From the NCBI GenBank assembly GCA_001661245.1, contig KV454012.1, positions 950,848-1,014,847 on the forward strand: a stretch of 64,000 nt of DNA, given 5' to 3'. The notes below the pieces were generated by a model, which ran no database searches, was not told the origin of the DNA, and saw only the letters and a list, made by a program, of their open reading frames with translations. Origin of the DNA: Pachysolen tannophilus NRRL Y-2460. Lineage: Eukaryota. The position numbers and the translations under genes are program-made. Each line of letters begins with the position of its first letter. Position 1 is the stretch's first letter. Shown piece by piece: positions 2,793 through 60,568 of the stretch.

Positions 2793-5700
2793 ATGCGGTT
2801 GGGACCAGAGCAATTATCCAAATTGCAATCAAATCCTTCTTGTATAAGGAATGTTTGTATCTTGGCTCATGTTGACCATGGTAAAACATCATTATCTGAT
2901 TCGTTGTTAGCGGCAAATGGAATCATATCGCAGAGAATGGCTGGGAAGGTGAGATACTTGGATTCAAGACCAGATGAACAATTGAGAGGGATAACAATGG
3001 AAAGTTCTGCAGTATCTTTATATTTCAGAGTATTAAAAAAAAATAAGGAAGATCCAAATTCTGAACCAGAAATTAGAGAACATTTGATCAACTTGATTGA
3101 TTCACCGGGACATATTGATTTTTCTTCAGAAGTTTCTACTGCATCGAGATTATGTGATGGAGCTGTTATCTTAGTGGATGTGGTGGAAGGGGTGTGCTCA
3201 CAAACTATTACTGTCTTGAGGCAGTCGTGGGTTGATAATTTAAAACCTATTTTGGTTTTAAACAAGATTGATAGATTAATAACAGAGTTAAAGTTGACAC
3301 CTGCGGAAGCTTATTTACATCTTTCAAAAGTTATAGAGCAAGTAAACTCCATTATAGGTTCTTTCTTTGCAGGTGAAAGAATGCAAGAAAATTTACTTTG
3401 GAGAGAAAAATTGGAAAAATCATTAAATCAAGATGAAGAATATATTGAAAAAGATGATCAAGATATATACTTTTCACCAGAAAAAAATAATGTAATTTTT
3501 GCTTCAGCAATAGATGGATGGGGTTTTAATATATCTCAATTTTCTGCTTTTTATGAAAAAAAATTAGGAATGAAAAGAGAAAATTTACAAAAAGTATTAT
3601 GGGGAGATTATTATCTTGATCCTAAAACCAAAAAAATTATTACTTCAAAAGGTTTAAAAGGTAGATCTTTAAAACCACTTTTTGTTTCATTTGTATTGGA
3701 TAATATTTGGACAGTGTATGAAAATGCTTTGATAAATAAAAATTTAGAAAAATTAGAAAAAATCATTCAATCTCTTAATCTCAAGATATCTCAAAGGGAC
3801 TTGAAATCTAGAGATACAAAATATTTATTGCAGTCAATATTTGGTCAGTGGTTACCTGTGTCAACTGCTGTATTAATAACGATAATCGAAAAATTACCAT
3901 CACCTCTAGAATCTCAAAAGAGTCGTATACCTACTATTTTAAATACTGCGCCAGGTTCAGAACTTATAAATGAAGATTTAAAACAAGCAATGCTTCTGTG
4001 TGATAGGAACGGACTTACCAGTGCATATGTCTCAAAGATGGTCTCAATTCCAGAATCTGAATTACCTAAGAATCAGACAGTGGCTTTGACTGCGGATGAA
4101 ATGATTGAAAGAGGTAGAGCAGCAAGGCTGGCAGCAGCAAAAGCTGCTGAAGCTGCAAGGAAATTTCAAGAAGAAAATTCCAAGAAAGATGATTTTGAAA
4201 TTGTAGATAGTAATAATAACTTTGATGATCCTTTTGGTGAAGATATCTTTGAAACTGAGGAAGAAGATCAAGAAGAAGAAGAAGCGGAGTTAGCAAAGGA
4301 AGTGTTGATTGGTTATGCCCGTGTTTATAGTGGTTGTTTGAAAGTTGGCTCAGAGTTAACGGTTTTAGGACCTAAATATGACCCATTGAGACCAAACGAA
4401 CATATCCATAAAGTTACCATTAGCGAACTCTACTTGTTGATGGGCAGAGAATTAATTGCTTTGAAAGAAGTTCCTGCAGGTAATATAGTTGGTATAGGTG
4501 GTCTAGCTGGGAAAGTATTAAAAAATGGTACATTAATTTCACCTGATATTACTGGGGTTAACTTAGCTGGTATAACTTTAAATGCACCTCCTATTGTGAA
4601 AGTTGCTTTAGAACCAGTGAACCCAACTCAAATGGACAAGTTAGAAAAAGGTTTACAGTTGCTTAATCTGGCAGATCCTTGTGCTCAGACTTTTCTTCAG
4701 GATACAGGAGAACATATTCTCGCTACAGCAGGTGAATTACACTTGGAAAGATGTTTGAAAGATTTGAGAGAGAGATTTGCCGGAATTGAAATATCTGTAT
4801 CAAATCCTCTTATTCCTTATCGTGAAACAATTGTGTCTAAACCTGAAATGAACCCTCCTAAATTCCCAGAGCTAGGTAGAGGCTGCTCTGAATTAAAAAT
4901 TGCAAATATATCTATCTTATTTAAAGTAAGACCTTTACCAAATTCAGTAACTGATTTCTTAATTGAAAACCAAAATACGATTCATTCTTTAATAAACAAA
5001 GTGGTAAAACTGAAATCTGAAGAAAATAGCAATCTTGAAAGTGGTGATGAAGATAGCGATGTTGTTGATGATGGAGTAGGAATTAATCCTGTTATAGCCG
5101 CAACTGATTTCAAAAAAAAATTACAAGAATTATTTAGTCAGGCAACCAACGAGAATAAAAAAGACCCATTTAACTGGGATGGATATGTTGATAAAATCAC
5201 TTCTTTTGGACCGAAAAGAACTGGACCTAATATTTTATTTGATTTGAAAGAGCATACCCTTAGAAGAATTTTTCTGTCTTCAAACACTAAAAACTTTGAA
5301 TTTGAAGATTCTATATTAAATGGGTTCCAGTTAGCCACATATGAAGGTCCTTTAGCACAAGAATTTGTTCAAGGTATTGCTGTATTCGTTGAAAAAATTG
5401 AAGTTATAAAAGATGAAGATTCCGAACAAAAAGATGAATTCAAAAATCTTGCTGGAAGAATTTTGACTTCTACAAGAGATTGTATCCACCGTGGGTTCTT
5501 AGATTGGTCTCCAAGATTAATGTTGGCAATGTATACATGTGATATTCAAACATCAGCAGAGGTCTTGGGTAAAGTTTATGCTGTTGTCCAAAAGAGAAGA
5601 GGACATATAATGTCCGAAGAAATGAAAGAAGGAACTCCATTTTTCACCATAGAAGCTAGAATTCCGGTTGTTGAAGCTTTTGGTTTCAGTGAGGATATAA

Positions 5701-5939
5701 GAAAGAAGACATCAGGTGCCGCAAGCCCCCAGTTAGTCTTTGCAGGATACGAAATCATCGATGAGGATCCATTCTGGGTACCTACAACTGTAGAAGAGTT
5801 GGAAGAGTTGGGTGAAATAGCGGATAAGGCTAATATTGCAAGAAAGTACATGAACGCTATCAGAAAACGGAAAGGTTTATTCGTGGATGAGAAAGTCATT
5901 CAAAATGCAGAGAAGCAAAGAACTTTAAAGAAAGACTAG
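2793..5939 (+). CDS. RIA1: Elongation factor-like GTPase EFL1/Ria1 (60S maturation)
   Basis: AHVDHGKT, RGITM, DSPGH and NKID GTPase motifs; EF2-like domains; EFL1-type C-terminus (FGFSEDIRKKTSGAASPQL...AEKQRTLK). Confidence 0.95.
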   Translation: MRLGPEQLSKLQSNPSCIRNVCILAHVDHGKTSLSDSLLAANGIISQRMAGKVRYLDSRPDEQLRGITMESSAVSLYFRVLKKNKEDPNSEPEIREHLINLIDSPGHIDFSSEVSTASRLCDGAVILVDVVEGVCSQTITVLRQSWVDNLKPILVLNKIDRLITELKLTPAEAYLHLSKVIEQVNSIIGSFFAGERMQENLLWREKLEKSLNQDEEYIEKDDQDIYFSPEKNNVIFASAIDGWGFNISQFSAFYEKKLGMKRENLQKVLWGDYYLDPKTKKIITSKGLKGRSLKPLFVSFVLDNIWTVYENALINKNLEKLEKIIQSLNLKISQRDLKSRDTKYLLQSIFGQWLPVSTAVLITIIEKLPSPLESQKSRIPTILNTAPGSELINEDLKQAMLLCDRNGLTSAYVSKMVSIPESELPKNQTVALTADEMIERGRAARLAAAKAAEAARKFQEENSKKDDFEIVDSNNNFDDPFGEDIFETEEEDQEEEEAELAKEVLIGYARVYSGCLKVGSELTVLGPKYDPLRPNEHIHKVTISELYLLMGRELIALKEVPAGNIVGIGGLAGKVLKNGTLISPDITGVNLAGITLNAPPIVKVALEPVNPTQMDKLEKGLQLLNLADPCAQTFLQDTGEHILATAGELHLERCLKDLRERFAGIEISVSNPLIPYRETIVSKPEMNPPKFPELGRGCSELKIANISILFKVRPLPNSVTDFLIENQNTIHSLINKVVKLKSEENSNLESGDEDSDVVDDGVGINPVIAATDFKKKLQELFSQATNENKKDPFNWDGYVDKITSFGPKRTGPNILFDLKEHTLRRIFLSSNTKNFEFEDSILNGFQLATYEGPLAQEFVQGIAVFVEKIEVIKDEDSEQKDEFKNLAGRILTSTRDCIHRGFLDWSPRLMLAMYTCDIQTSAEVLGKVYAVVQKRRGHIMSEEMKEGTPFFTIEARIPVVEAFGFSEDIRKKTSGAASPQLVFAGYEIIDEDPFWVPTTVEELEELGEIADKANIARKYMNAIRKRKGLFVDEKVIQNAEKQRTLKKD

Positions 5940-6227
5940 TACTGGTCCCGTCCATGTTTATAGATGATTATAGTGTTTGATAGATTAATATATAAAACCC
6001 AACTGTTCCTGGATTTTGGTGTAGGATGTTTGCAAAGAAAGTTTTAAATAGAAAATTGGTAAACAAAACAAGTATTATTAAAATTAATAGATCTAACTAA
6101 TACTAATTAATTTTTTATTTTTTAAATACTATTATTGAACGTGGTTAGAGCCTATATTATTCGATAAGAGAGATTGAGTCTAGAGATCTAGATCTAAGAA
6201 AGTAATTTGTTTTGTTTTGCTTCATTA

Positions 6228-7739
6228 ATGACAGTTTTAGAAGTTGAATCAACAATAGATGAAAAGAGTCAAAATACAGGAATATGGGATCGTTTGTTGA
6301 AAACATTCAAAACTGATTCTCATTATGGTGTTTCATCTTTTTCTAAGAAGAAGGCGTTGCTTATTGTTGGTGGGACATCAGATCAACAGAAGATAATTAT
6401 AGATAAGTTAAGGAGTTCAAGTAATAAGAATTCTTTGTTTTCTTCAAATAAATCCAAAAACAATTCTGCTGAGATTGCTAATGAATTTTCATTAGGGTAT
6501 ACATATATGCAATATTATTTGAAATTGAATGAGGATAGACGGCAGGAGGAGATAATTGGAGGAGATGATTTAATGTATAATGTATTAGATATTTATACCC
6601 TTTGTTCTACTGAAGGATTATATGGAGAAAAAGAGTTTGATTTTGAACATTATTTTAACTTGTTACAAATATTTAAAGAAAAAGAGTTTGAAGATTTATT
6701 AGTTTTACAACTTTTCAGTCTTGATGGTTATAATGAAAAAAATTTTGATGTTCAACAAATAGTTAATAGGATTATACCTTGGTGTAAATTGTTAAATGAT
6801 GCTTTTAGTAAACAAATGAAAAATGATATTGTTAAAAAATGGTTTTATGAATCATTGTTAGAGTATTATCCAAATCCAACTAGTGCAATATTAAATAATG
6901 AGTCAAATATTCAAATAGAGGATCAAACTAAAGGAGAATGTGATTTCCCTATTGGATGTAATTACCTTTTAATGGTAACAGGAACAGAATTTTTAGATAC
7001 ATCAATGAATCCTTTATTATCTCAATTAGAAATAGACAAATTACAACAAATATTAAGAATGATTGTTTTAAAAGTTGGTGGAAGTTTTTGTTATTTACCA
7101 AATTTTACTAAAGATGAAATGATTTTCCCAATAATTAAATTATTAAATAAATTGTTGATTAATAATAGTAATGGTAAATTCAAAAGCAAAACTAAAATTG
7201 AACCAATAATAAACAATTTTTTAAATATTTTGATTCCTAGAGGTTGGGATACATGGGGTAAAATTAAAACATTAAATGAAAATATCGACTTGGATTTTTG
7301 GAATGAAGAATTTGAGAAATTAATACAAAAAACCCAAGAAACAGAAATTGATGAAAAGAAAAAAAATATTGTTTCAACGGGAAATGAAGATTTAATTAAT
7401 GACAAATATCAAAATTTTTTGTTAAGTCAATATAAGAAACAGTTAGAACAAGACCAAAAATTGGCAATAGAAAAATCAAAAGGAATATCAAGACAAAATA
7501 ATAACATTGAAAATGTCAAATCCATTTTGGATAATGAAAATGTCACTGAGACCCAAAGTTCCCTACAAAATTTCAGAAACCAGTTCCTAAGTGGTAGTAA
7601 CTTTGATGATGACGATGAAGATGATGAATTCCTGAGATTGAAGACATCTGGAAATGAATCTGTTACTTCAACCTATTCTCAACCAGACATCTTAAACGAA
7701 TTTTTGTCAGACATCTTGAGGAAAAAAAAAGGTATATAG
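6228..7739 (+). CDS. DYN3: Cytoplasmic dynein light intermediate chain (Dyn3-like); first ATG at 6228, track start is a TTG
   Basis: IWDRLL, SLGYTY, LQQILRMIVLKVGGSFCY and LIPRGWDTWGKIKTL resemble fungal DLIC motifs (IP..WDSWGKI); C-terminal LxxFLxxLL-type helix (ILNEFLSDIL). Confidence 0.75.
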   Translation: MTVLEVESTIDEKSQNTGIWDRLLKTFKTDSHYGVSSFSKKKALLIVGGTSDQQKIIIDKLRSSSNKNSLFSSNKSKNNSAEIANEFSLGYTYMQYYLKLNEDRRQEEIIGGDDLMYNVLDIYTLCSTEGLYGEKEFDFEHYFNLLQIFKEKEFEDLLVLQLFSLDGYNEKNFDVQQIVNRIIPWCKLLNDAFSKQMKNDIVKKWFYESLLEYYPNPTSAILNNESNIQIEDQTKGECDFPIGCNYLLMVTGTEFLDTSMNPLLSQLEIDKLQQILRMIVLKVGGSFCYLPNFTKDEMIFPIIKLLNKLLINNSNGKFKSKTKIEPIINNFLNILIPRGWDTWGKIKTLNENIDLDFWNEEFEKLIQKTQETEIDEKKKNIVSTGNEDLINDKYQNFLLSQYKKQLEQDQKLAIEKSKGISRQNNNIENVKSILDNENVTETQSSLQNFRNQFLSGSNFDDDDEDDEFLRLKTSGNESVTSTYSQPDILNEFLSDILRKKKGI

Positions 7740-8064
7740 CAGGTTATTTATAAACTTATATACAAATTCATTATACAATAGCATAGCAACCAATACAGCA
7801 AATCTTTCTTAAAATCACTGCTCAAGAACTTGATCAATAAAATGTTTGAAAAGATGGTATTTGGAAAGAATAAAGCTTTTCTTAGTAGTGTAAATATTTT
7901 TTTCATGAAAATACTAAAAAGAAAAGTGAAGTTTTAAAGATATCTATCTATCTATCTATCTCTTCTTCTTCTTCTTTAAAAAGAGAGAATTTTTGGTTTA
8001 ATCTATTTGTTATTGATAGGACGATCAAGTAGACCAGTATTAGTTAATATTTCTATTCTTTATT

Positions 8065-9974
8065 ATGGCTTCTCAGATTGATGATCAGTCAGTGGCGGGT
8101 GTTGCAGGGTTAGTTATCACAAGAGATGGTGGTGGTGAAAAACTTGCAGTAAAGAAAAATGGCGAAGTTTCAAAGATGAATAATAATAATAATAAAGAAT
8201 CCAAGAGAAGAAGATCATCTTCACAACAGAGTAATAATACGCTGTTGAGAAAGCGTAAGTTTTTACAAAAACCAGAACTAAGGATAGATAAGAATTATTC
8301 TAAAAAAAAATTGGTATATCTGATTTAAGAGACTTGTTACTATACTTATTAACAGATACAAATGTTGTACCGAATTGGGTTAGTGCTATCAATAAAACAG
8401 CTATTCAAAGAGTTTTATTTTTGTTTGTTCCAGGTTTAACGGCAAATGATTTTGGATATGAAGATTTTATAAATGATATATCTCCAAAAATTGTGAATCC
8501 CATTGAGAAGTTAAGTTTTTTCAAAGAACAATTTGAATATGTTTTCCCTTTACAATCACCAGGTTCTAAAGATTCATTAGTAAGTTCATATAGTGCTTTA
8601 ACAAATGTTCCATTAACCAAGAAGGAAAAGGAAAAATTGAAAAAACTGCAAAAAGAGATTAAATCTGATACAATACTTCCAGATTTAGTTATGAATTTGG
8701 AACAATTGATACAAAATAATTATCCAATACATCCTTTATCACCAAATATCACTGAAAAATTCAAAGAGCAAAATTTTTTAAAAGAAGGTTGGGTTGATAC
8801 TATGGAATTTGATCATGAAGGGTCACATACTTTTGCACTAGATTGTGAAATGTGTGATGCAGCAATTGGTAAAGTCTTGACAAGAATTTCTTTGATTGAT
8901 TTTAATAATAATGTAATAATGGATGAATTAGTTAAACCAAAGGAAGAAATTATAGATTATGTTACTCTGTATTCTGGTATTACTGAAGATATGTTGCGTG
9001 ATGTTAATACTACGTTACATGATATACAACAAAAACTATTAAAAATAATTTCTACAAATGATATATTAATTGGACATTCTTTAGAAAGTGATTTAAATGT
9101 ATTGAAATTGCGTCATCCATTGATAATAGATACAGCAATAATATATGATCATCCAAGAGGACCTCCTTCCAAGGCATCATTAAAATGGTTAACGAAAAAA
9201 TTGTTAAATAAAGATATTCAAACAGGTATAAATGGTCATGATTCAATAGAAGATAGTAAAGCATGTATGGAATTAGTTAAATTAAAAGTATTAAATGGTA
9301 TAAATTTTGGTAAAAATACATTTGATACTAGTTTATTTGATAAATTATCAGAAGTTTCAAACAATAATAAAAAATCTAAAAATTCAATTGTAATTGATTA
9401 TTCTGCAATTAGAAATTCAATAAAATTGAATACAGAAGATAAAATCCAATGTTTTAATGATGATGAAGTTGTTGATAATATAATTAAGAATTGTGATCAA
9501 TATGATTTAACAATTGCAAAATTGAGAGAATTGGAATTTGCTAAAAAATGGTCACCTCGTCCTAAAAATTTTGAATTAAAAAATAATGATGATAAGAATA
9601 ATAATAATAATAATAATGATAATGAAGATGATTTTACAACAGAATATCAAGATTTGAATTTAAGATTAACAAAAATTTATAATAATTTACCTGAAAATAC
9701 AGCTTTAATAGTTTGTTCAGGTAATGGAAATCCAATAAAGATGTTAGAATTACAAAAACTTAGAAATCGATTTAATAAAGAATATAAAACTAAAAATTGG
9801 GATGAAGTAGAAAGTAAATGGGAATTAAAAGATTCAGATAATTTGAAAAAGGCAACACTTATTGCTAGAGATTCATTATGTTTTTTAACTGTTAAACATA
9901 GTAATGATATACCTCTGACAGCTACATTAGATAAAGAATTAACAGTTGAATCTGAATATGATAATAAAGATTAG
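8065..9974 (+). CDS. RNH70: DEDDh 3'-5' exoribonuclease Rex1/Rnh70; reading frame broken by one nucleotide at the A9 run 8302-8310
   Basis: Exonuclease motifs FALDCEMC, IGHSLESDL, GHDSIEDSKAC. The ORFs at 8065-8328 and 8334-9974 join into one frame (...YSKKKIGISDLRDLLLYLL...) if one A is added to the homopolymer. Confidence 0.85.
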
Positions 9975-10092
9975 TAAAAAAACTATTATAAATATATTCC
10001 AAAACATTTAAAATGGTTTTTTTTTAAAAAAATATATATATTTATATAGATTTGTAAATATGTAAATGAAATTTAATAATACACAATTGGAC

Positions 10093-10821
10093 TTACTCCA
10101 TCTCAACGTCTTCCTTTTCATTTTCATTTTCATTTTCATTTTCAGCAACTGATGGTGCTGATTCATTAGCTATTTCTTCAACTTTTACTTGTTTATCATC
10201 TTCTTCATCTTTATTGGTCAGCAATTTTTCTTCATCTTTCAAGTCTTGTTTCAAACTAGATTCATTAGAAGTATTATTTTCCTTATCCAGTTCATTTTCA
10301 AGTTTAGCTTTTTCTTCTTTTTCAACTTGTGCTTGACTACTTGAAAAACCTGCAAGCATATCTCCACCACCAACTGCTCCTCTTATATCTGCATCCGATA
10401 ATCCTTTACCATTATTTTCAGCTTTTCTAGCTTCAGTAGTCTTTTCTTTCAACCCAGAATATGGATATTGTAACAAATCTAAAATATCTCCTTCTTCTTC
10501 AAGATCCACAACCAGATCTTTAGCATCAGGTAATTCATCAGTAAGAATCCAAGTTTTAATCTTTAAATCATATGAAGGTTGTGGAGTCCCAGCAGAAGTC
10601 GAAGTCTCTGTAGAATCAGCATTTGTAGATGGAACCGGCGTAGCAAAACTAAAATTACTATTCAAATTAGGCGTAGCTGAACTTTCAACTCTTTTTGGAG
10701 GTGAAACCCAATCTCTAATCCAATGTCTTTCACTAGAACCTGAATTCATCAAATTCACCAGCGAAAACGAATTGGCACTCCTAACCAACGATTGACCATA
10801 AAGACTGTGTCTAGCAGACAT
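10093..10821 (-). CDS. Uncharacterised 242-aa protein: compact N-terminal region plus acidic/charged tail; divergent from TAF1
   Basis: ATG-initiated ORF filling the gap between RNH70 and TAF1, with protein-like composition. No family confidently recognised. Confidence 0.75.
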   Translation of the reverse strand: MSARHSLYGQSLVRSANSFSLVNLMNSGSSERHWIRDWVSPPKRVESSATPNLNSNFSFATPVPSTNADSTETSTSAGTPQPSYDLKIKTWILTDELPDAKDLVVDLEEEGDILDLLQYPYSGLKEKTTEARKAENNGKGLSDADIRGAVGGGDMLAGFSSSQAQVEKEEKAKLENELDKENNTSNESSLKQDLKDEEKLLTNKDEEDDKQVKVEEIANESAPSVAENENENENEKEDVEME

Positions 10822-11108
10822 GATTAACCAACCTTATAGCAATATCCCCAAAAAAAAAAACAAAGATCAACTCTCTCCACTGATTAACCCTATAATACTG
10901 GCGGTTATATTGTTTATTAAAGCTATCAAATTGGACGACTTTTTTTTTTTTTGGTTATTTATTTTTTTTTTTTTTTGTATTATTATTATTTACTGGTTTA
11001 AAATAAATTAAAATGGTGGTGATGATAATTTTTAATTAAAAATTGATAATTTTAATTCATCGTTTTAATTAGGAATAGATCCATAATTTGGGAGTGTGGA
11101 TTTTGGAG

Positions 11109-14100
11109 ATGTCATTGTCTGATTCCAAAAGAGTCCATAAGGGGGCCAATAGTAATAATAATGGCGTTGGCGGTGGTGGTAGTAGTAGTGGTGGTAAGAA
11201 TGGTGGTAGCGGTAATAGGAATGGGGAAAGTGTAAATGAAGATGCACTTTATGATACTGCTTTAACTGGTAATATATCGTTTAATGAGTTTGATGAGATG
11301 TTTCGGAAAAGTGAAACTGTTCATGCTGCTGATGCTATTGATTTCGAAGATGAAGATGAATTAGCGGAAGAGGATGATGAACTTGCTGAAGAAGAAGAAG
11401 AAGAAAAAGAAGAAAAAAAAGAAGAAGAAGAAGAAGAAGAGAAAAGTGATGATTTCATAAATGAATTAGAACAAGAAGGGTTAGAAGGAGTCAGCGCGTC
11501 CTCTGTGGCAAGTAACCAGGGTTTATTTGGAAATAATCTTGGTATGGACACAAAGGATGAACCAGATTTGACAGTAGGGAATAAACAGATTGGTGAAAGT
11601 GATTTAGAAGATGATGAACAGTATGAAGGTTCTCAAAACCATTTGGTAGAAGAAAAATTGAAACAAGAGAAATTAAGACAACAAAGGAGAAACCAAAAGC
11701 TTTTGAAAAGATATTTCCCAACTTTTAAAAAAAATTCTATTTTGAAAATGATTCCTTTATTTCTTTCTACTGAATATGGAGAATATAATTATCATAGACC
11801 TATGTTACCAGATGAACCATTGATTCCTACAACAATCAATTTTCTTGAAGTTGAACCTGATCAGCGGAAGGCTTTTTCAAGAAATGTAACAAAACCTGTT
11901 GTATGGAAGTATCAAAGTGGCAATCAAGCTCAATTACAATATCATCTGTCATCAACAAAGGCAGAACAGGATATAATAGAAATAAAGGAAACTGATTTAG
12001 ATGTATTGATTCCACCAACACAAACACAGAGGCTTGAAAAACCTAAATTTGATGATTACGATAAAGATTTAATACTTTCTACATGTGATTGGAACGATGA
12101 AGAAATTATAAATGGTGGTAGTACAAGTGATGATACAATTGCCACTGGAAAAGAAATAAAATCACCAATTTTGAAAAAACGCAAAGTTAATAAATGGGAT
12201 CACTATGACATTGATGATTGGATAGATGATGATGATATGTTATTTGAAGGTAGACTAAGCGTTAAATCGTTAAAATTACAATTAGATATGAATGATCCGA
12301 ATTTATTATTTATTAAAAACAAATTATTAGAAAAGGAAAATGAAAATAAAGCTGTAATTCCGACAAATGAAAAATTATTAGAATTGAAATTTAATATTTC
12401 AAACGATAATGAATATAATGTACTAAGAGAAAATTATCAAACTAAAGTTAGATCAACCATTGGAAATTTATCTATTGATCACTCAATGCCTGCAATTAGA
12501 TTACAATTCCCATATTATAAAGTTAGGATCGATTTGCGTAGTACAAGATTTTTCCATAGACCTCAATTTTATGTTAGACCAAACACATTGATACAATTTA
12601 GCAAAGTTAAAGCTAGAAAGCGCAAGAAGGATAAAGGTAAGACAATTCATGAATTGTATTCAAAATCTTCTGATTTAACTTTAGGAGATTCTGCAAATTT
12701 TTTCATGTTGGAATATAGTGAAGAATATCCTTTAGCATTATCAAATTTTGGTATGGGTTCAAAATTAATAAATTATTATAGGAAAAGAAACGAAGAAGAT
12801 ACTTCAAGACCAAAATTACCAGTAGGTGAAACACATGTTCTTGGTCCTCAAGATAGATCACCATTTTGGAATTTTGGTTTTGTTGAACCAGGAAATATTG
12901 TTCCAACATTATACAATAAAATGATAAGAGCACCTGTCTTTCAACACAATCCAAAAGAAACAGATTTTTTATTAATAAGAAGTTCTGGTGGTAACTCAAA
13001 TAGTCAGAGATATTTTTTAAGAAGTATTAATCATGTTTTCACAGTTGGTCAATTGTTCCCAGTTGTTGATGTTCCTGCTCCTCATTCTCGTAAGGTTACT
13101 TCTACTTCAAAAAACAGATTAAAAATGATTGTTTACAGAGTCTTAAATAAAAATGATCAACATAGATTAGCAGTTAAGGATATTTCAGTTCATTTTCCTG
13201 ATCAAAATGATATGCAAAATAGACAAAGATTAAAAGAATTTATGGAATATCAAAGAAGTGGTGATGACCAAGGTTTTTGGAAAGTTAAACAAGGAGAAAG
13301 TTTACCGAATTTTGAACAAATAAGAAATATGATAACACCAGAGGATATAACTTTGTTAGAGTCCATGGCAAGTGGTCTGCAATATTTGAAAGACTTGGAA
13401 TATTATTACGGTGATGAAGAAGAACAGGAAAGACAAAGACAAAGAGAAAAGGAAAAATCTAATAACAATAACAAGAACATTGGAGAAGAAAGTATTGAAG
13501 AACAACTTGCTCCTTGGAATGTCTCTAGAAATTTTATCAATGCCACTCAAGGTAAAGCAATGTTACAGATACACGGTGAAGGTGATTTTACAGGAAGAGG
13601 TGAATCATTTTCCTATTTAAGAACGTCTATGAAAGGTGGTTTCAAAGGATCAAATGATACTGATTTTATTCCTGGCATGCCGGGAACTCCACCTCCACAA
13701 AAACCTGAGAAAAAAAGAGGTAAGAAGAAGGATAAAGAAGAAGAAAAATTGAAAGTAGGTCCTGGACATACTTATAATGTTGCAATGCAACAGAAAATGT
13801 ATAATGAAGAAATTGCAAAAGTTTGGTATGCGCAAAGAAGAGCATTTAGTAAAGACACTTTTGGTTCCGAAGGCCAGAAAAAAAATAAGATTGAAGAAAT
13901 ACGTGATGAAGACTTGTTTGATACTATCAAAGAAGGTACTCCAGTTAATATTAAGAATCCAGAGCCTGCAAACAAACCGCAACGTAAATACTTGAAAATA
14001 ACAAGAATGGTTAGAGATGAAAATGGTATACTTCAAAGAAAAGTGGAAATTGTAAAAGATATGGCAGTCATTAAAGCATATGTCCTGCATAAGATTAAGC

Positions 14101-14558: not shown

Positions 14559-14828
14559 TTTTATGACACTTTTTTCTAAAATTGGTGATACATTTTAATT
14601 TGGCGGTTTTATGTAATATGTAATTTTAAAGTTATTAAAAAAAGATGAATTTTTATTACTGATCTATGATTGTAGAAGAAAATCAATGTGATAACTAAGT
14701 TACAGATTTTAAAAAAAAAAAGTGTAGGTTAGTTACATTTATATATTAATAATTATCAGATATCTACCATTAAATAATAATAATAATAATAATTATAATA
14801 ATGAAATCCTAATTAAAATATCATTCAA

Positions 14829-15423
14829 TCATTCTGCCAATAATGAATATTGATTTAGCAACGGACAATCTCCTCCTCTTTCTGGATCCAATCCATAATT
14901 ATAGAAAAAACCTTCAGAAGTAACAACCATCACATGTAAAAATTTCTTCAGTGTTAAATCGGTATCCTCTCCGCTACTACTATTTGTGCTACTGTTTTCA
15001 AAAAAAGCAGTAGGTATTTTATCAACGGAGATTTCTTTACCTATTGCAACAACTGTTTTGGTATCTCTAGAAACAGGAACTTTACAAGAAGCAAAATGCC
15101 TATTTGGTTCCAATATTGAGGAAAATTTTGGAGGAAGATAATTCCCCCATTTTCCAATGACTTTTGTCCCTATAGATTGGGAAGTTCTTCGAAACAATCT
15201 TCCCATTGTCTTTCTTGAATTATCAATCAATGGTTCAACTTTGTCGGAAGAGTCCGCACTATTATAAGAGCCTAAAGAAGAATTTGATCGCCGCCTGGGC
15301 ATCTTTGGTAATGCAACAACAACTTCTTGTTCATCCTCACTTTCACTTCCAGAAGATTCACTTGCGGCTGACAGTTTGTTGATGGAATCGCTTTGATTAC
15401 TAATATTACTGTTATTAGCACTG

Positions 15424-15454
<31 letters not shown>

Positions 15455-17415: not shown

Positions 17416-17461
17416 AAAGTAAAAAAAAAAAAAAAAAAAGAAAAAAGGTGATGTACGTATA

Positions 17462-21690: not shown

Positions 21691-21767
21691 TGGTTTAAAG
21701 AAAGAAAGAAATAAAAAGTTTTCATATAATAACTAAACTAAAATCTTTTTTCAAAATACAATAAAAG

Positions 21768-48789: not shown

Positions 48790-49227
48790 CTCGCAATCGA
48801 ATTTTGCCTCCTTCACTTTTAACCGCTACCAATTACAAAATTATCAACGTTAACAACTCTTTTTTTTTCTTTTCTTTTCTTTTTTACCAAAAGATAACAC
48901 TGATACCAATAATTGCTATGATATAACCTTCTAATAGAATCCAAGATATCCTCAGTCTTTAGAACCAATTAATAAATAATAAATATGGAGTCGTTCTCTA
49001 ACGTTTCCAATAATTTGATAATTGTATTAAAAATAAAAGAATATGTTTAAAAATGAGGTTCTTGTTAGGCGGACATACGCCACTACTTTTCAATTTGTAA
49101 TCTACAAGAGGCAATCATCAACCAGTTAGATGAGTTAAATGAGTTAGACGACTACTTATAGAGGGTAAATATCTGATAAGATAAATTGTATTATGTAATT
49201 TTAGTTGAAAGCTAATTCAAGTATGTT

Positions 49228-52200: not shown

Positions 52201-53748
52201 TAAAATCATTTGAGAAAACTGAAGAAAATAATAAACTTGAATAGGATCAGAAAAACTGACTATAAAAACGGTATCATGAACATTTTCTTTCAAATTTGGA
52301 ACTTGACCTGGTTGAATTTGTTTAGTAACATAATCTTTCCTAGTTCTTTTCAAATTTGCATACATTGGGTCTTTTTCTATATCGTTCACATATATGATAA
52401 CGTCTTGACTATCCCTAATATCATAACGTTTTTTGGAAGATGAACCTTTAGTCTTCAATAAACTATGATATGCAAAAGAATTTATTAAATTTTTTGACTG
52501 AAATGGATTTAATCCCAAATTCATCAAATATTTTATTATTGACAGTTCTTTAGAAACATATTTCAAAATTCCATGTAAATTTAAAGAAAAATCATCTAAT
52601 GGGAATCCATTTATATATAAACCTGGTGGGGCCACTGTTTCAGATTCCAACAAATCCAGAACGGTATCATTATCAAGAGTATCTAATTCAGATAAATGAG
52701 AAGCATATTTAGGGAAATCTTGTAATAAAATATTCAAGATTTCATAATTTTCAGTTCCATTTCCTGAGTAGTTTAAAACATAATCAGCAATTTTTAAATC
52801 CAAATCATCAATCTTACTAACTGGTTTGATATCTTCCATATATTGTTCCCAAAAATTCTTTGAAACAACATTATCAGAAATTTTACCCTTAATCTGATCA
52901 GTAGATGCCTTACGTTGATTATTTCTGTCATCAATTACAATATAATCAGTTCTTTTCAAAGTCAAATCCACTCCATATCCTGATAATTCTTCATAACAAA
53001 AATTTTCTTGGTCTCGTTGTTCTTGTTGTTGTTGTGGCAAATATCTCCAAATAAATCTTAATTTATCTGCTTGAACAAATTGATATAAATTGTAAAACAT
53101 TTTCCTAAATTCTGAGGAATCAACTGTACCGTATAATATAAGCACAGGGCCTTCATTATCCCCAATTACTCTATCAAATGGTAAAATAACATCACTCTGA
53201 GACTTCTTATCAGTTATTATTGCAAACAAATCATCTGCAGAACAATATAACTCATCATTGAATAATACAAACGATTTTGGTATTTCACCATTACCACCAG
53301 AACATTTCTCAACAAGTTTTTCTCCATATTTCGGTAACACATCTGATTTAAAAAATTGATAATGAGATTGAACCCTTGGAGTGAAAAACTTATTCGCCAA
53401 GTAAAGCTCCATAATGCGACGATCACTTTTATCAACAAGATCTAACGATACCTCGTACAATTTTGAATCAGAAAGCACTTTTAAATTATCATCATCATCA
53501 AATTCTTCTTCTGCAGCATTGTTTAAAGGAATTTGTAAAAAATTCGATACCAAACTCAAATACGCACTCTCATTTAAAGAACTAACAGTCTCCAATAAGT
53601 TCAAATGAAATGGTGTTCTCAACCAAGTACTTTCCAATTGAACATCAACCAAATGATCATTACCTCCATCAATTATTTTTCTTGCACAAGCATGTGTCCA
53701 CAAGCAATTGAACAAAACCGTAAAAACTACCACAAGAAAATACCTCAT
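49228..53748 (-). CDS. UDP-glucose:glycoprotein glucosyltransferase (UGGT, GT24; Kre5 homologue)
   Basis: Signal peptide, LSGYGVDLTLKRTDY, MANLGYLQLKANPG, INIFTVASGHLYERF, FVDADQ, LDQDLPNN, WLWCETWC, terminal HDEL. Confidence 0.95.
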   Translation of the reverse strand: MRYFLVVVFTVLFNCLWTHACARKIIDGGNDHLVDVQLESTWLRTPFHLNLLETVSSLNESAYLSLVSNFLQIPLNNAAEEEFDDDDNLKVLSDSKLYEVSLDLVDKSDRRIMELYLANKFFTPRVQSHYQFFKSDVLPKYGEKLVEKCSGGNGEIPKSFVLFNDELYCSADDLFAIITDKKSQSDVILPFDRVIGDNEGPVLILYGTVDSSEFRKMFYNLYQFVQADKLRFIWRYLPQQQQEQRDQENFCYEELSGYGVDLTLKRTDYIVIDDRNNQRKASTDQIKGKISDNVVSKNFWEQYMEDIKPVSKIDDLDLKIADYVLNYSGNGTENYEILNILLQDFPKYASHLSELDTLDNDTVLDLLESETVAPPGLYINGFPLDDFSLNLHGILKYVSKELSIIKYLMNLGLNPFQSKNLINSFAYHSLLKTKGSSSKKRYDIRDSQDVIIYVNDIEKDPMYANLKRTRKDYVTKQIQPGQVPNLKENVHDTVFIVSFSDPIQVYYFLQFSQMILQNMIPQQVGIIPLIKNERDLIITKQFLYLLHAEGLRQAFSYLQQVNEELMQSIQENGQLPLTDIIIENLDIPEEFDEQLKKLLLLNEKFLKKFSINKPQILVNGVFYSFGQQWQMYIATQIYLDVLKLSEALKNKEIRKTTPLKDFLFSDADKGRNTFIIPDSLDLETPAIYKKLNFEEYQKLLEEDQIGQITSNIADESVLKTLWFIGDFESEKCLTQFLHLLKVITVTGNLKLNYINIGKGESIFNHFKEKYNTVGLEAEEYLIEQINSSQKDVNLSEIDPAKLSKIKKLYGLSTLLKEDSSYYVILNGRVLKINDETDILSFDDLELFINYEVDSRLGMIYDNLGQFDVEKNTGIEKYTWFELLSTQITKTYYKDDNDDEDSSIYFNSPIPRYDLSLIRENTIIPVRPYIENSLIDITVVIQPINELSQKLISLVKVFNSFDKDFLNIKIALKPLKTLENIEIKRFYRGVYQTGVNFDENGDYIYLNDENRGVFKQVPEKTLFTLDLDVPSSWIVTIKEAISDLDNVKLDNTGDVSGIYELKNILVEGHAREVSLNSKSGQPPTGLQVQLTQDELYSDTNVMANLGYLQLKANPGLWEFKLKPNTKTSSIYEIVDVDTTFISDIQEYEKVTSKDSVMFSILNLNGLTIYPVVKKKIGKESHSILSDEDDDIGIIEQGTNLFKRFFKSQDKPKLQAEINIFTVASGHLYERFLSIMTASVMKNTEHTVKFWLIENYMSPTFKKNLPILAENYGFEYELVTYKWPKWLRGQREKQRTIWGYKILFLDVLFPQDLQKVIFVDADQIVRTDLKELIDLDLEGAPYGYTPMCDSRKEMEGFRFWKQGYWDKVLGQNGLQYHISALYVIDLKRFRQLMAGDILRQHYQSLSADPSSLSNLDQDLPNNLQHRIKIFSLPQEWLWCETWCSDESLKVAKTIDLCNNPLTKEPKLDRARRQVPEWTSYDNEIFELLDHKQFKTDSKSKNEKTHDEL

Positions 53749-54084
53749 CTTCTCAAACTTCTCAAGCTTTTCAAACTTCTCAAGCTACACACAATATATC
53801 AACCCAGCTTCCTCCAGAGACTTTTTTCTATTCATCAACTTAAAAGTCGAGTTTATTATCTTTTGAAAAGTTTCCAATTCACTTTTCCGCCAGTAGTGCT
53901 GGAAAATTCAAAAATGGTATCTTAAAACCGTTAAGTTAAACTTGAAAGGAAGAGATGAGAACCAATTGATTGGAATGATATTGATTGGAAGAGTTTAGAA
54001 GAGTGGTTTGAGAAGGGTTTTTCTTTTGGTAAAGTTATTGATTGTTGTATATTGATTTCTTTGGATTTAGTGGGATTTTCATAA

Positions 54085-55935
54085 ATGATGTTGCGAGTTT
54101 GTGCTAGGAGTGGGTTGAGGTTTCTGATTTATAAAAAATTGAGTAGAGAGAATTTTAGTGGTGGTATCTTATTGATGAGAAGTGTTTATACTACAACGGA
54201 TGGTAACGATGAAAGTAAGAATTCGATCAAGGTTCCTTATGGTAAGAATGTGGAGATATCACGAGGTTTCAAGAAAGGAGCTGAAGGTGGGGTTTTGGAA
54301 GGTCAAGAGCAAGAAGATATTATCAAACCTCCAGTTCATGTGGATATCTTGGAAGAACAAAAGAAATTTGAGCAAAGTTTAAAATTAGAAGAGGAAATAG
54401 AAAGAGCTAAATTGGTCAAGTTACCGACACCTAAGATGTTGAAACAGCATTTAGATGATTATATTGTTGGTCAAGAAACTACCAAGAAGATTATATCTGT
54501 TGCTGTTTATAAGCATCAATATATTCAACAATTAACAGCAATAGATAAAAAATATAAAATGAGATTACATCAATTTAATAGTTCATTGCTGTCTTTGGAA
54601 TCTTATGATACAGAGCTAATGATAGAAGAACCTGATTTGGAAAAATCCAATATTTTATTAATTGGACCTTCAGGTTCAGGAAAGACTTTAATTGCAAAGA
54701 CATTAGCCAAATTATTAAAATTACCAATTACAATAACGGATTGTACTTCATTAACTCAAGCAGGGTATGTCGGTGAAGATATTGAAAGTTGTATTGAGAA
54801 ATTATTAATAAATGCAAATTATGATGTTGATTTATGTGAACGTGGAATTGTGGTATTAGATGAAATAGATAAATTATCCAAACCTTCACTTTATAGTGGA
54901 ACAAAAGATATTGCAGGAGAAGGTGTTCAACAAGGTCTTTTAAAATTGATTGAAGGTAGTAAAGTTAGTGTTAAGGTAAAAGATTATGCCAATATTAAAG
55001 GTGTTTTGAATGATAGTACAAACACTGATAATAGTAAAAAAAATGGTAATGAACAAAATTTTATTGTTGATACCAGTAATATTTTATTTATTTCAATGGG
55101 TGCTTTCATTGGTCTTGATAAAATTGTAGCACAAAGATTTAGATCATCATCGGCTATTGGGTTTGATGATGACGATCATAATAATAATAAAATTGATTCT
55201 AAAAAAGTAATCGATCAAGATGAATTTAATTCTGAAAATATTGATCAAGATGAATTTACTACATCTGGTTTCCAAGAGAAAATAAAAACTCTGGATAAAG
55301 ATGATTTCAAGACAAGTATAGTTGAACATGTTGTCTTGAGTAATGGTAAAAGTTTATCTGCATTAGAATTAACTTCTCCAGTGGATTTACAACAATTTGG
55401 GTTAATACCTGAATTAATTGGAAGGTTACCAATAATTACAGCATTGAACCCATTATCAGTTGAAAATCTTGTAGAAATCTCAACAGAACCTAAAAATTCA
55501 ATAATTAAACAATATGAATATTTTTTCCAAAAAATGGGAGTAAGATTAGCCATTACAAATAAGGCAATTGAAAAAATTGCCAAAATATCACTTTTAAATG
55601 GATCTGGAGCAAGAGGCTTAAGATCAATCTTGGAGAAAATCTTATTAAGTGTTAATTATGATTGTCCAGGTTCAGGTATTTCATTTGTATTAATAGATAA
55701 ACAAGTTCTTTATAATTTTGAAAAAAATGATGGATTAATAATTAATACAGATCATACAGAAACACAAATCCAAAACTCAATTTCAGCAAAATACTATTCC
55801 AGAGGTGATATATTCACTTTCTTAAACGATGTGGGCCAAGAAGATGAACAATTGATGAAGAAAATCGAACAAGAATACAAGATCCCAAGTTTAACCCAAC
55901 ACAAGAAAGTTGAAAAAATCAATGCCTCCGGATAA
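54085..55935 (+). CDS. MCX1: Mitochondrial ClpX AAA+ unfoldase
   Basis: Basic presequence-like N-terminus, LDDYIVGQ, Walker A GPSGSGKT, TQAGYVGED pore loop, Walker B LDEIDK, GEGVQQ, PELIGRLP, GARGLR. Confidence 0.94.
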   Translation: MMLRVCARSGLRFLIYKKLSRENFSGGILLMRSVYTTTDGNDESKNSIKVPYGKNVEISRGFKKGAEGGVLEGQEQEDIIKPPVHVDILEEQKKFEQSLKLEEEIERAKLVKLPTPKMLKQHLDDYIVGQETTKKIISVAVYKHQYIQQLTAIDKKYKMRLHQFNSSLLSLESYDTELMIEEPDLEKSNILLIGPSGSGKTLIAKTLAKLLKLPITITDCTSLTQAGYVGEDIESCIEKLLINANYDVDLCERGIVVLDEIDKLSKPSLYSGTKDIAGEGVQQGLLKLIEGSKVSVKVKDYANIKGVLNDSTNTDNSKKNGNEQNFIVDTSNILFISMGAFIGLDKIVAQRFRSSSAIGFDDDDHNNNKIDSKKVIDQDEFNSENIDQDEFTTSGFQEKIKTLDKDDFKTSIVEHVVLSNGKSLSALELTSPVDLQQFGLIPELIGRLPIITALNPLSVENLVEISTEPKNSIIKQYEYFFQKMGVRLAITNKAIEKIAKISLLNGSGARGLRSILEKILLSVNYDCPGSGISFVLIDKQVLYNFEKNDGLIINTDHTETQIQNSISAKYYSRGDIFTFLNDVGQEDEQLMKKIEQEYKIPSLTQHKKVEKINASG

Positions 55936-56280
55936 GTAAATCTCTATAATCGATATACTTATATACGTACATACAAACTATAAAAAATAACCCCAATACA
56001 AAAAAACACACTTCTTGCTATTGCTCTTGCCATTATCGCTCTCGTCATTGTCGTTGTCGTTGTCGTTATCTCTTCAATTCTCCAGGTGAAATCTGCCAAA
56101 ATGTCCGCTGTGTCAATGTGCCACTAACCTTTCCTCTTTTGTAAACGGTATCAAACCGATAATAGGTGCCATAATAACTTTGCTCATTGGTATTTAACAT
56201 ATAATATATATATATATAATATATATATATGATATAAATATTAGTTATTAATTATTGATTATAATAGATCTTAAGAGGTT

Positions 56281-58536
56281 ATGGAAAAATTCAATCTTCC
56301 ATTTAGGAGGCCGGCGGCTTCTAAGATTTTGAAAATTTGTAATGTTCCAAGTAATCAACTTGCATTAAGTAATTGTGTTGTTGCTAATCCAAAAGATTTT
56401 CGAGATGGTGAAACTGTGATAGCAGATAATATTTTTGTATTTTCAGTGAGAACATCTAGTGAGGTTGGTGAAGGGTTTCTTGGTGCTAATGGGAATCAAA
56501 GGATGTGGGCTCATTGGTCATTGAATCAAGATGTTTCAATTGCTCCTTATGATTTGTTTAAGAGTACTGGTAGTCATGCATATTTAGGACTGTTAAACAT
56601 TGAAATTAGATTTAGAAATAGAAATAAGACTACTAATCATAAATTTGATCAAGATGTTTTATCTGAAAAATTTATTCAAAATTATGAATCTCAAATTTTT
56701 CAACCAACACAAGAGATGGTATTTGAATTTCAAGGTTTTTTATTTAATTTAGTTGTTAAATCAGTTCAATTGGTAGATTTGGGACAAGCGGCTTCTCTGG
56801 ATTCAAATATTTCTTCTAATATTACCTCTAAAGGTTTATTAACAAATCATACTTTAATAACTTTTTATAGTGGTGATAATATTGTAAAATTGGATTCAAA
56901 TTCTTTAAATAGACCAAATGCAGATGCAATTATAAGACCAGATTTTAAATTTGAAGATATGGGAATTGGTGGTTTAGATAAAGAATTTACATCCATTTTT
57001 AGAAGAGCTTTTGCTTCAAGAATTTTTCCTCCAGCTTTAATTGAAAAATTAGGAATTACTCATGTAAAAGGTTTATTATTATATGGTCCTCCTGGTACTG
57101 GTAAAACTTTAATTGCAAGAAGAATTGGTAAAATGTTAAATGCAAGAGAACCAAAAATTGTTAATGGTCCAGAAATTTTAAGTAAATATGTTGGTTCATC
57201 AGAGGAAAATATTCGTAATCTTTTCAAAGATGCTGAAGCAGAATATAAATCAAAAGGTGATTCTTCTTCTTTACATATCATTATATTTGATGAATTGGAT
57301 TCTGTTTTTAAACAAAGAGGTTCAAGAGGTGATGGTACAGGTGTTGCTGATAACGTTGTTAATCAATTGTTATCCAAGATGGACGGTGTTGATCAATTAA
57401 ATAATATTTTAATTATTGGTATGACCAATCGTCGTGATTTGATTGATGAAGCATTGTTAAGACCAGGTAGATTTGATGTTCAAGTTGAAATTCATTTACC
57501 AGATGAATATGGTAGAAAACAAATTTTAGAAATTAAAACCAAGAAAATGAAAGAAAATTCAATGTTAACTCCTGATGTTAATTTAAACGAATTAGCTTCT
57601 TTAACTAAAAATTTTAGTGGTGCTGAATTAGAAGGTTTAGTTAAAAGTGCATCTTCTTTCTCCATTAATAGACATATTAAAGTTGGAACCGTGGCAGCTA
57701 TTAATGAAGATGTTGCCAATATGAAGGTTACTAGACTGGATTTCCTCAATGCATTGAATGAAGTTAAACCTGCATTTGGTGTTAATGAAGAAGATTTGAA
57801 AATGGTTACTAAAGGTGGAATAATAAAATTCTCTACTAAGATTGATGAAATTATAAATCATGGAATGCGTTATTTGAAACAAGTTAGTGATTCTCAAAAG
57901 ACTTCTTTTATCTCATTATTAATGCATGGTCCATCGGGTTCTGGTAAGACAGCTTTAGCAGCATCAATTGCCTTGGCATCTAAATTCCCCTTTGTCAGAT
58001 TTATTTCTCCAGAAGCTATGGTAGGAATGTCTGAATCAGCTAAAATCCAATACATTGATAATACTTTCCGTGATAGTTATAAATCTCCTTTGAATGTATT
58101 GGTTGTTGATAATATAGAAGGATTAATCGAATGGGTTCCAATTGGTCCAAGATTTAGTAATCCAATTTTACAAGCTTTAAAAGTATACCTTAAGAGATCA
58201 CCACCAGAAGGTCATAGATTGTTGATCATCTCAACATCATCGACTCATGCTGTATTACAACAAATGGATATTCTAAACTGTTTCCACAACGAATTGGCTG
58301 TTCCTAATTTGACCTCATTAGCTGAATTCAACAACGTTATGGAATCTGTTGATTTCATGGATGAGAATGCAAGAGCATATATTACAAAGAAATTACAAGC
58401 AATCGAAGCAAACAATGGTGCAAGATTGAATGTTGGTATCAAGAAAGCATTGACAAATATCGATACAGCTTCTTTCGATCAAGATGAATCAAACGAGCTT
58501 ATTGAATTAATGGCACAAACCATGACAAGCAGATAA
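56281..58536 (+). CDS. SEC18: Vesicle-fusing ATPase NSF/Sec18
   Basis: MGIGGLDKEF..IFRRAFASR, GPPGTGKT, IIFDELD, LLRPGR, second Walker A GPSGSGKT, PIGPRFSN. Confidence 0.97.
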   Translation: MEKFNLPFRRPAASKILKICNVPSNQLALSNCVVANPKDFRDGETVIADNIFVFSVRTSSEVGEGFLGANGNQRMWAHWSLNQDVSIAPYDLFKSTGSHAYLGLLNIEIRFRNRNKTTNHKFDQDVLSEKFIQNYESQIFQPTQEMVFEFQGFLFNLVVKSVQLVDLGQAASLDSNISSNITSKGLLTNHTLITFYSGDNIVKLDSNSLNRPNADAIIRPDFKFEDMGIGGLDKEFTSIFRRAFASRIFPPALIEKLGITHVKGLLLYGPPGTGKTLIARRIGKMLNAREPKIVNGPEILSKYVGSSEENIRNLFKDAEAEYKSKGDSSSLHIIIFDELDSVFKQRGSRGDGTGVADNVVNQLLSKMDGVDQLNNILIIGMTNRRDLIDEALLRPGRFDVQVEIHLPDEYGRKQILEIKTKKMKENSMLTPDVNLNELASLTKNFSGAELEGLVKSASSFSINRHIKVGTVAAINEDVANMKVTRLDFLNALNEVKPAFGVNEEDLKMVTKGGIIKFSTKIDEIINHGMRYLKQVSDSQKTSFISLLMHGPSGSGKTALAASIALASKFPFVRFISPEAMVGMSESAKIQYIDNTFRDSYKSPLNVLVVDNIEGLIEWVPIGPRFSNPILQALKVYLKRSPPEGHRLLIISTSSTHAVLQQMDILNCFHNELAVPNLTSLAEFNNVMESVDFMDENARAYITKKLQAIEANNGARLNVGIKKALTNIDTASFDQDESNELIELMAQTMTSR

Positions 58537-58784
58537 GAAATCGATACCATTATCATCACCATTAACAACTCACAAGAATCAAAAATCAAAAAGAAAAAAA
58601 AAGTTGATTTCTGTCGATATATTCTATACGTCTATATATATATATATATATTTATATATATACATTCTATATATTTGTCTTTTCTGTTCACTATTATGAT
58701 TGATAAATTTTAAAGATCTTTTAGTTATATCATGTAATTTTGAATCTTTCCATTAACCTGATAAATCGAATTGAAAAAAGAATA

Positions 58785-58786
<2 letters not shown>

Positions 58787-58834
<48 letters not shown>

Positions 58835-59356
58835 NNNNNNNNNNNNNNNNNNNNNNNNNNNNNNNNNNNNNNNNNNNNNNNNNNNNNNNNNNNNNNNNNN
58901 NNNNNNNNNNNNNNNNNNNNNNNNNNNNNNNNNNNNNNNNNNNNNNNNNNNNNNNNNNNNNNNNNNNNNNNNNNNNNNNNNNNNNNNNNNNNNNNNNNNN
59001 NNNNNNNNNNNNNNNNNNNNNNNNNNNNNNNNNNNNNNNNNNNNNNNNNNNNNNNNNNNNNNNNNNNNNNNNNNNNNNNNNNNNNNNNNNNNNNNNNNNN
59101 NNNNNNNNNNNNNNNNNNNNNNNNNNNNNNNNNNNNNNNNNNNNNNNNNNNNNNNNNNNNNNNNNNNNNNNNNNNNNNNNNNNNNNNNNNNNNNNNNNNN
59201 NNNNNNNNNNNNNNNNNNNNNNNNNNNNNNNNNNNNNNNNNNNNNNNNNNNNNNNNNNNNNNNNNNNNNNNNNNNNNNNNNNNNNNNNNNNNNNNNNNNN
59301 NNNNNNNNNNNNNNNNNNNNNNNNNNNNNNNNNNNNNNNNNNNNNNNNNNNNNNNN

Positions 59357-59400
<44 letters not shown>
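58787..59400. repeat. (TA)n microsatellite flanking assembly gap 58835-59356
   Basis: More than 20 TA units on each side of the N run. Confidence 0.95.
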
Positions 59401-59403
<3 letters not shown>

Positions 59404-59409
59404 TTTAGA

Positions 59410-60568
59410 ATGAATTGTTCTCTGTCATCCAATGCTATAGCACTTATGGATGACTTCATAACTTCTAGTTTAATTGATAATGTATGTATGTAATTTTTTG
59501 TTTAAATAATGTTTTTGCAAAACTAACATTTATTGAGAATTGAGTTACCATTAGTTATATTTTTGGGCAACAACAAGGAAGATACAGGATATATGGTTCA
59601 AGCCAATCTTGAATCGTTATGTGTTAGAGTCAATCCAGATGTATTTATTGGATGTAGCTGATGAACCATTATGTTCTTTATGTGTTAGCGATTTAATGGA
59701 AAGAGTAGAGACTAGAGAATTTATATCTAAATACATTGATAATGAATTGAAATTAACAGAATTTGAGAATCATTTTGAAAAATATCTCAATATTTATTTA
59801 CCAGATTGTGTATTTGAAATTAATACTACTAGTAGATATGGTGGTAAGATAGGTAAGAGATTTATGGAAGGAACTGTTGTTGCTAGAAGAGAAATTTTAC
59901 TGGGACAAGAGATTAAATATTTACAAGGTATTTTAAGTGAAGTTTCAGAAGAAGAAACTTTGAATATAAATGATTTGAGTATAATTAGATTATCAAGTAA
60001 AAAAAATAAACCATGTTTAATGTTGGGTCCTTTAAGATTTGTTAATCATGATTGTAATGCTAATTCAAAATTTTTTTCAAAATTAAATGTTTTAAAAATA
60101 GTTTCCACAAGAAAGATTTTGATGGGAGAAGAAATAACTGTATTTTATTCAAATGATTATTTTGGTGAAGATAATTGTGATTGTTTATGTGCTAGTTGTG
60201 AACGTAGTCTTAATGGATATTGGAAATTACATAGAAAATTGATGATTCAAAGATCCCTTGATTTACCAATATTGAATAATACCAAGTCACAATTATCGAA
60301 TACAAAGATAAGACCAAGACGTTATACAAGGTTACAAAATTCGAAAAATAAAACAATACTAGATTTTTATGGAATGAAACCATCCCAAGATAAGAAAAAG
60401 ACAATTAATTTTTTAAACAAATTGTATAACAGAAATGTAAGGTCCAAGGCAAAATGCGACAACTGCGGTGTCTTCACTGCAGCTGAACCCATATGCTTGC
60501 GGTGCAAAAGACACCAATTAATATATAAAACTGCTTGGCCATTAACATTACAAATTCAAAGGAGCTAG
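59410..60568 (+). CDS. SET9: Histone H4-K20 methyltransferase Set9/Suv4-20 family; two exons, 59410-59481 and 59555-60568
   Basis: The spliced N-terminus MDDFITSSLIDN|LYFWATTRK matches the family's DD...L.D..YW motif. Also YLNIYLPDCVFEINTTSRY, LMLGPLRFVNHDCNAN, GEEITVFYSNDYFGEDNCDCLCASCE (SET plus post-SET), and C.RCKRH..IY...WP. Confidence 0.9.
59482..59554 (+). other. Spliceosomal intron in SET9 (73 nt)
   Basis: GTATGT at 59482, branch AACTAAC at 59521-59527, TAG at 59552-59554. The phase-0 join is in frame with the ORF at 59609 and restores a conserved motif. Confidence 0.88.

Follow-up and report, generated by a model that had tools for sequence, protein, structure and literature searches.

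CUG read as alanine in a 64-kb nuclear window of the yeast Pachysolen tannophilus NRRL Y-2460

Budding yeasts have undergone three independent reassignments of the CUG codon, according to the available text of Krassowski et al. 2018 (PMC5951914), in which Pachysolen, Nakazawaea and Peterozyma make up the clade that reads CUG as alanine. The DNA considered here is a single stretch of 64 kb (hereafter the window), approximately 30% G+C and tightly packed with yeast genes, which is almost certainly nuclear DNA of Pachysolen tannophilus NRRL Y-2460 in which CUG is read as Ala, that is, by NCBI translation table 26. The code of the window is identical to that of the CUG-Ala clade: the strain is the type strain, and its public proteins are table-26 translations. 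One comparison is with the CUG-Ser1 clade of Candida and Debaryomyces (table 12), which resembles Pachysolen in that the same codon was reassigned, in a budding yeast, with a tRNA(CAG) derived from a non-Leu tRNA (available text of PMC5951914). Unlike Pachysolen, CUG-Ser1 yeasts insert Ser rather than Ala, through an independent event with its own tRNA source; the invariant sites of the window carry A, and the public proteins are not table-12 translations. The CUG-Ser2 clade of Ascoidea and Saccharomycopsis represents the third independent CUG reassignment in the Saccharomycotina (PMC5951914 and PMC6041473, in the portions available). Its outcome is Ser, or a stochastic mixture of Ser and Leu in Ascoidea asiatica, in contrast to the unambiguous Ala reported for Pachysolen in the accessible part of PMC4937558.

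The finding that CUG encodes Ala is already known, having been published in 2016 for this same strain, the type species and type strain of the code (available portions of PMC4937558 and PMC5951914). As far as the available text of Mühlhausen et al. 2016 (PMC4937558) goes, the tRNA(CAG) of NRRL Y-2460 is of the Ala type, with the G3:U70 pair and A73 and without a Ser-type variable loop, and liquid chromatography with tandem mass spectrometry found Ala at 97.2% of 907 fully supported CUG positions, the predicted proteome holding 16,824 such positions. In the model set out in that source, the ancestral tRNA-Leu(CAG) would have been lost and a duplicated tRNA-Ala would have gained the anticodon CAG. 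Because alanyl-tRNA synthetase ignores the anticodon and relies on G3:U70 and A73, the resulting tRNA-Ala(CAG) would be charged with Ala and would place Ala at CUG. The tRNA and peptide evidence thus belongs to the literature; the present analysis supplies the organism's identity, the exclusion of Leu, and Ala both at two invariant sites and in the public annotation. The initial annotation of the window had proposed CTG as Ala and held that this would be new only if the species lay outside the known Ala clade. NCBI taxonomy places P. tannophilus in the family Pachysolenaceae of the order Alaninales, so that the window falls inside the clade and novelty lapses with it. Riley et al. are said to have given a second report, in PNAS, in the same year.

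Of the 16,676 codons in the 25 open reading frames (ORFs) of at least 150 amino acids (aa), 82 are CTG, a frequency of 4.9 per 1000, and all but one of these (81) belong to the 23 ORFs regarded as genes.

633..63325, no strand assigned: stretch that contains the 81 CTG codons in frame in the 23 gene ORFs, from codon counts; all to be read as Ala

The codon is uncommon, as had been claimed, and eight CTG codons offered as examples, together with a ninth in TAF1 at 13377, were all found in frame at their positions. Low abundance is not diagnostic in itself: in DNA of approximately 30% G+C, the same ORFs contain even fewer CTC (25) and CTA (61) codons. The assignment therefore has to be sought in what homologous proteins carry at the CTG positions.

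For that comparison, homologues were collected for CLU1, RIA1 and UGGT (119 each) and for SEC18 (150) and aligned with MAFFT; every CTG was entered as X, to keep the alignments free of bias. The window's own copies (P0004, P0124 and P0244) were left out, as were two RIA1 rows of more than 70% identity (P0125 and P0126), and RIA1 was scored with 117 homologues. Columns occupied in at least 50% of the sequences were kept, which retained 18 of the 23 CTG sites in the four proteins, and column composition was scored by a Codetta-like log-odds. All 20 control codons were decoded correctly: TTA, TTG, CTT, CTA and CTC gave L, the GCN codons gave A, all six codons for Ser gave S, and ACT, GAA, AAA, CAA and GGT gave the residues expected. 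The mean frequency of Leu was 0.064 at the 18 CTG columns versus 0.519 at 468 true Leu-codon columns, with means of 0.37-0.55 for the TTA, TTG, CTT, CTA and CTC columns taken separately. None of 20,000 random draws of 18 Leu-codon columns gave a value as low, the minimum draw being 0.230. CTG columns thus do not behave like those of other Leu codons, and CTG as Leu is rejected from the window's own data because the 18 columns are poorer in Leu than any of the 20,000 draws. Tabulating the consensus residue at CTG columns, the check proposed with the initial annotation, accordingly disposed of Leu; the score picked no residue in its place, and Ala was not identified by it.

What points to Ala specifically is a small set of conserved sites.

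15729..15731, minus strand: ATG18 aa241, in DGLLL[x]TASDKGT; A in 5/5 solved Atg18 chains among those listed, from two proteins
40378..40380, minus strand: PRP45/SNW1 aa54, in DYN[x]IIAGQG; A in 5/5 solved Prp45/SNW1 chains among those listed
23850..23852, plus strand: UBC7 aa98, in CISILH[x]PGDDP; S in two yeast Ubc7 chains and A in three others (one E2-18 kDa, two UBE2G2), never L
36497..36499, plus strand: CTG as the fifth position of [ST][TA][VL]A-x-E, a motif of a flocculin-like ORF

The initial annotation had cited the near-invariant PROPPIN motif ATASxKGT and the SNW motif YxAIxxQG, each with Ala where CTG stands, and either A or S at ILH[x]PGDDP in the Ubc7/UBE2G2 family, and had argued that the first two favour Ala over Ser. 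The solved chains bear this out: ATG18 aa241 and PRP45 aa54 correspond to A, and never to S, in the chains listed, and the five aligned with UBC7 read S, S, A, A and A. Where a CTG codon stands in a conserved column, that column is therefore Ala at PRP45 aa54 and ATG18 aa241, informative sites being few. Furthermore, the motif [ST][TA][VL]A-x-E occurs in seven copies in the flocculin-like ORF, and in 6/6 of the others x is Ala (GCT four times and GCG twice), with CTG in the seventh.

The flocculin-like wall protein itself (35585-37516, plus strand) is rich in Ser, Thr and Ala, carries the motif in tandem in the form ESSASTVAAEGTSTT, and has six CTG codons; of the window's genes, it is the one whose repeat pattern would be most visibly altered if CTG were read as Leu rather than Ala.

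The identity of the organism follows from public sequence. The best match of CLU1, searched with CTG as X, is the hypothetical protein PACTADRAFT_32447 [Pachysolen tannophilus NRRL Y-2460], at 99% identity over 100% of the query. When SEC18, UBC7 and POP5 were each translated under three codes and looked up exactly in NCBI/UniRef/nr, all three table-26 translations were present, and none of the three table-1 or three table-12 translations was. Likewise, for six window proteins, A stands at 30/30 CTG sites in the public copies. P. tannophilus NRRL Y-2460, in the order Alaninales, is thus a member of the Ala clade, and the proposal that CTG stands for Ala, with each CTG-derived 'L' to be read as A, agrees with the invariant sites, with the 30 public sites and with the literature.

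Several observations weigh against reading CTG as Ala, or at least against the weight that the window can lend to it. No amino acid attains a positive log-odds at the CTG columns, the best being E at -1.6, followed by S at -5.4, Q at -7.3 and A only at -8.0. Mean Ala frequency is 0.079 at CTG columns versus 0.442 at GCN columns, and none of 20,000 draws was as low. The mean frequency of the top residue is 0.362 at CTG columns, versus 0.583 overall and 0.600 at GCN-Ala columns. The alignment evidence from the window for Ala in particular, beyond 'not Leu', is therefore thin. That the public proteins agree with table 26 is a consequence of the code chosen by their annotators, and is no independent measurement. 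No tRNA gene was found in the 64-kb window by ARAGORN, and no Rfam match. Finally, at some sites Leu is acceptable: the residues aligned with POP5 aa56 are S, L, L, L and A, the column of UGGT aa402 is L in 45/119 homologues, and two further sites of this kind head the rows below.

38599..38601, plus strand: POP5 aa50; E in yeast, L in human and L in one archaeon; public copy A
13377..13379, plus strand: TAF1 aa757; L in yeast TAF1, E in human TAF1
59900..59902, plus strand: SET9 (KMT5-like) aa88; R in the four human KMT5B chains listed, and uninformative
4128..4130, plus strand: RIA1/EFL1 aa446, within RAAR[x]AAAKAAEAAR, a run rich in Ala; column E 81, A 10, L 7 and I 7 of 117; public copy A
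56590..56592, plus strand: SEC18 aa104; column S 34, T 14, A 14, K 9 and E 9 of 127 occupied (of 150); public copy A
57736..57738, plus strand: SEC18 aa486; column D 30, A 26, E 25, S 19, N 12 and Q 9 of 150; public copy A

The claim that Leu fits poorly at the CTG codons holds statistically and is not supported at some individual sites: POP5 aa50 is tolerant of Leu in distant homologues, to judge from the aligned residues; TAF1 aa757, which had itself been flagged as tolerating Leu, is L in the yeast protein; and SET9 aa88 says nothing either way. The CTG sites of MCX1 lie in insertions with no aligned residues.

The low frequency of the top residue means that CTG sits at unusually variable columns, and these columns are hydrophilic besides (18 columns, four proteins). 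This differs from the summary given for P. tannophilus in the available text of PMC4937558, where CUG is placed 'mainly at conserved alanine positions', since most CTG codons of the window stand at variable columns. At such columns Ser fares as poorly as Ala, with a mean of 0.096 versus 0.322 at Ser columns and 1 of 20,000 draws as low. The 18 variable columns thus fail to separate Ala from Ser, and the choice of Ala over Ser inside the window rests on two or three conserved sites. Among the closest non-self homologues (44-74% identical, four listed for each of 20 CTG sites), none is consistently Ala, which is uninformative. The sequence context gives a weak signal for Ala over Ser: Ala is enriched 1.42-fold within three residues of CTG, the self-enrichment of Ala being 1.61, and the neighbour profile of CTG correlates best with that of Ala (0.54) and next with that of Ser (0.49).

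An origin of the CTG codons from codons one step away was also considered and found no support. Residues encoded by such neighbours (L, M, V, P, Q and R) have a frequency of 0.271 at CTG columns versus 0.290 at other variable columns, and 13,180 of 20,000 draws were as high.

Three other readings of CUG bear on these data, all of them very improbable. The one that survives best is ambiguous decoding, in which Ala would predominate but another residue would take a substantial share, as with Ser and Leu in the published case of Ascoidea asiatica; it is nonetheless highly unlikely. It is possible to see the avoidance of constrained columns by CTG (0.362 versus 0.583) as what would be expected of an unreliable codon, and the available text of PMC4937558 records 8 positions where Ala is accompanied by another residue and 18 that have a non-Ala residue. 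That same text adds, however, that AUG, an unambiguous codon, shows such exceptions at least as often, and its conclusion is that CUG is decoded unambiguously. Against ambiguity, too, CTG is present at two invariant Ala positions of the window, whose data cannot themselves measure ambiguity.

Still less probable is CUG as Ser, as in the Candida clade (table 12) or in the clades of Ascoidea and Saccharomycopsis. Ser is slightly ahead of Ala at the CTG columns of the four proteins (0.096 versus 0.079 in mean frequency, -5.4 versus -8.0 in log-odds), the yeast Ubc7 chains read S at aa98 of UBC7, and S is the commonest residue at SEC18 aa104. Set against this, PRP45 aa54 and ATG18 aa241 are A and never S in 5/5 chains listed for each; the other copies of the flocculin-like motif use GCN-encoded Ala in 6/6 cases; the table-12 translations of 3/3 genes are absent from the public record; Pachysolen belongs to the Ala clade; and the published tRNA(CAG) is without a Ser-type variable loop (PMC4937558, in the part available).

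Least probable of all, to the point of being negligible, is the standard code with CUG as Leu, CTG being rare through AT-richness and the poor fit of Leu arising by chance at few sites: CTG (82) is not the rarest codon of the Leu box, given CTC at 25 and CTA at 61, Leu is tolerated at POP5 aa50 and aa56, TAF1 aa757 and UGGT aa402, and aa8 of the flocculin-like ORF, in the signal peptide, would suit Leu, but the 18 CTG columns (mean Leu 0.064 versus 0.37-0.55 at other Leu codons, 0/20,000 draws), the invariant Ala at PRP45 aa54 and ATG18 aa241, the absence of table-1 translations for 3/3 genes where those of table 26 are present, and the 97.2% Ala of the proteomics (PMC4937558, in the part available) all stand against it.

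The remaining observations concern the genes of the window and their models. The gene content comprises carboxypeptidase Y, CHS7, RIA1/EFL1, TAF1, ATG18, UBC7, CLU1, Tudor-SN, the flocculin-like protein, POP5, PRP45, NCS6, BLM10, UGGT, MCX1, SEC18, the SET9/KMT5-like gene and eIF3a. Tudor-SN (29001-31604, minus strand) has staphylococcal nuclease repeats and a Tudor domain, and UGGT (49228-53748, minus strand) is a full-length UDP-glucose:glycoprotein glucosyltransferase with all its thioredoxin-like domains. Saccharomyces cerevisiae is not known to have a Tudor-SN, nor any counterpart of UGGT beyond the divergent Kre5. Upstream of the flocculin-like gene, a stretch of approximately 4 kb (31605-35584) contains no ATG-started ORF of at least 70 aa under table 26, no tRNA and no Rfam match. 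Runs of N occupy 16982-17415 (434 bases), 20632-20848 (217) and 58835-59356 (522), all three bordered by poly-A, poly-T or (TA)n tracts, and the ORFs at 16785-17468 and 58725-59459, which figure in the mechanical list of those of at least 150 aa, are artefacts of reading across such runs.

Three gene models deserve comment at their 5' ends. RIA1/EFL1 (2793-5939, plus strand) is an uninterrupted ORF of 1048 aa, and the public protein P0124 (1000 aa) begins at its Met49. The public model looks N-terminally truncated, because the GTPase domain begins within the 48 missing residues (the Pfam GTP_EFTU match runs from residue 18, and AHVDHGKT lies there) and homologues cover 100% of the longer ORF. 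For CLU1 (24738-28727, plus strand), the public model P0004 (1337 aa) has an N terminus unlike that of the ORF, with eight additional residues and four mismatches at the start, which points to an intron, preceded by a short 5' exon, upstream of 24738. In the SET9/KMT5-like gene, one further CTG falls in a putative short 5' exon.

59422..59424, plus strand: in-frame CTG in the short 5' exon predicted for SET9, followed by an intron starting GTATGT; the splice site was read from the sequence

In this region of the gene (window 59400-59640, plus strand), the exon starts M-N-C-S-[CTG]-S-S-N-A-I-A-L-M-D-D-F and ends at the GTATGT donor, with the main ORF resuming by 59639, so that the intron placed in the SET9 5' region by the initial annotation appears to be right.

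The importance of the finding is practical rather than scientific. Because CUG is Ala in this yeast, an ORF track made with the standard code should have A in place of each 'L' that derives from CTG, and is wrong at approximately 0.5% of positions, or 81 sites in the 23 gene ORFs. Translation of the window requires table 26, which the public annotation already uses. The case also shows that 64 kb of raw sequence can be enough to recognise a change of code, the rejection of Leu being easy and the choice of Ala over Ser harder. As for the codon itself, the 18 columns sampled from four proteins show CUG largely away from constrained positions; that CUG-Ala codons are kept from such positions as a rule is an unlikely proposition. 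Were it to hold across the genome, CUG would fall short of full equivalence among the Ala codons: it may be young, tRNA-poor or slightly error-prone, and would then be tolerated mainly at positions where the residue is of little consequence.

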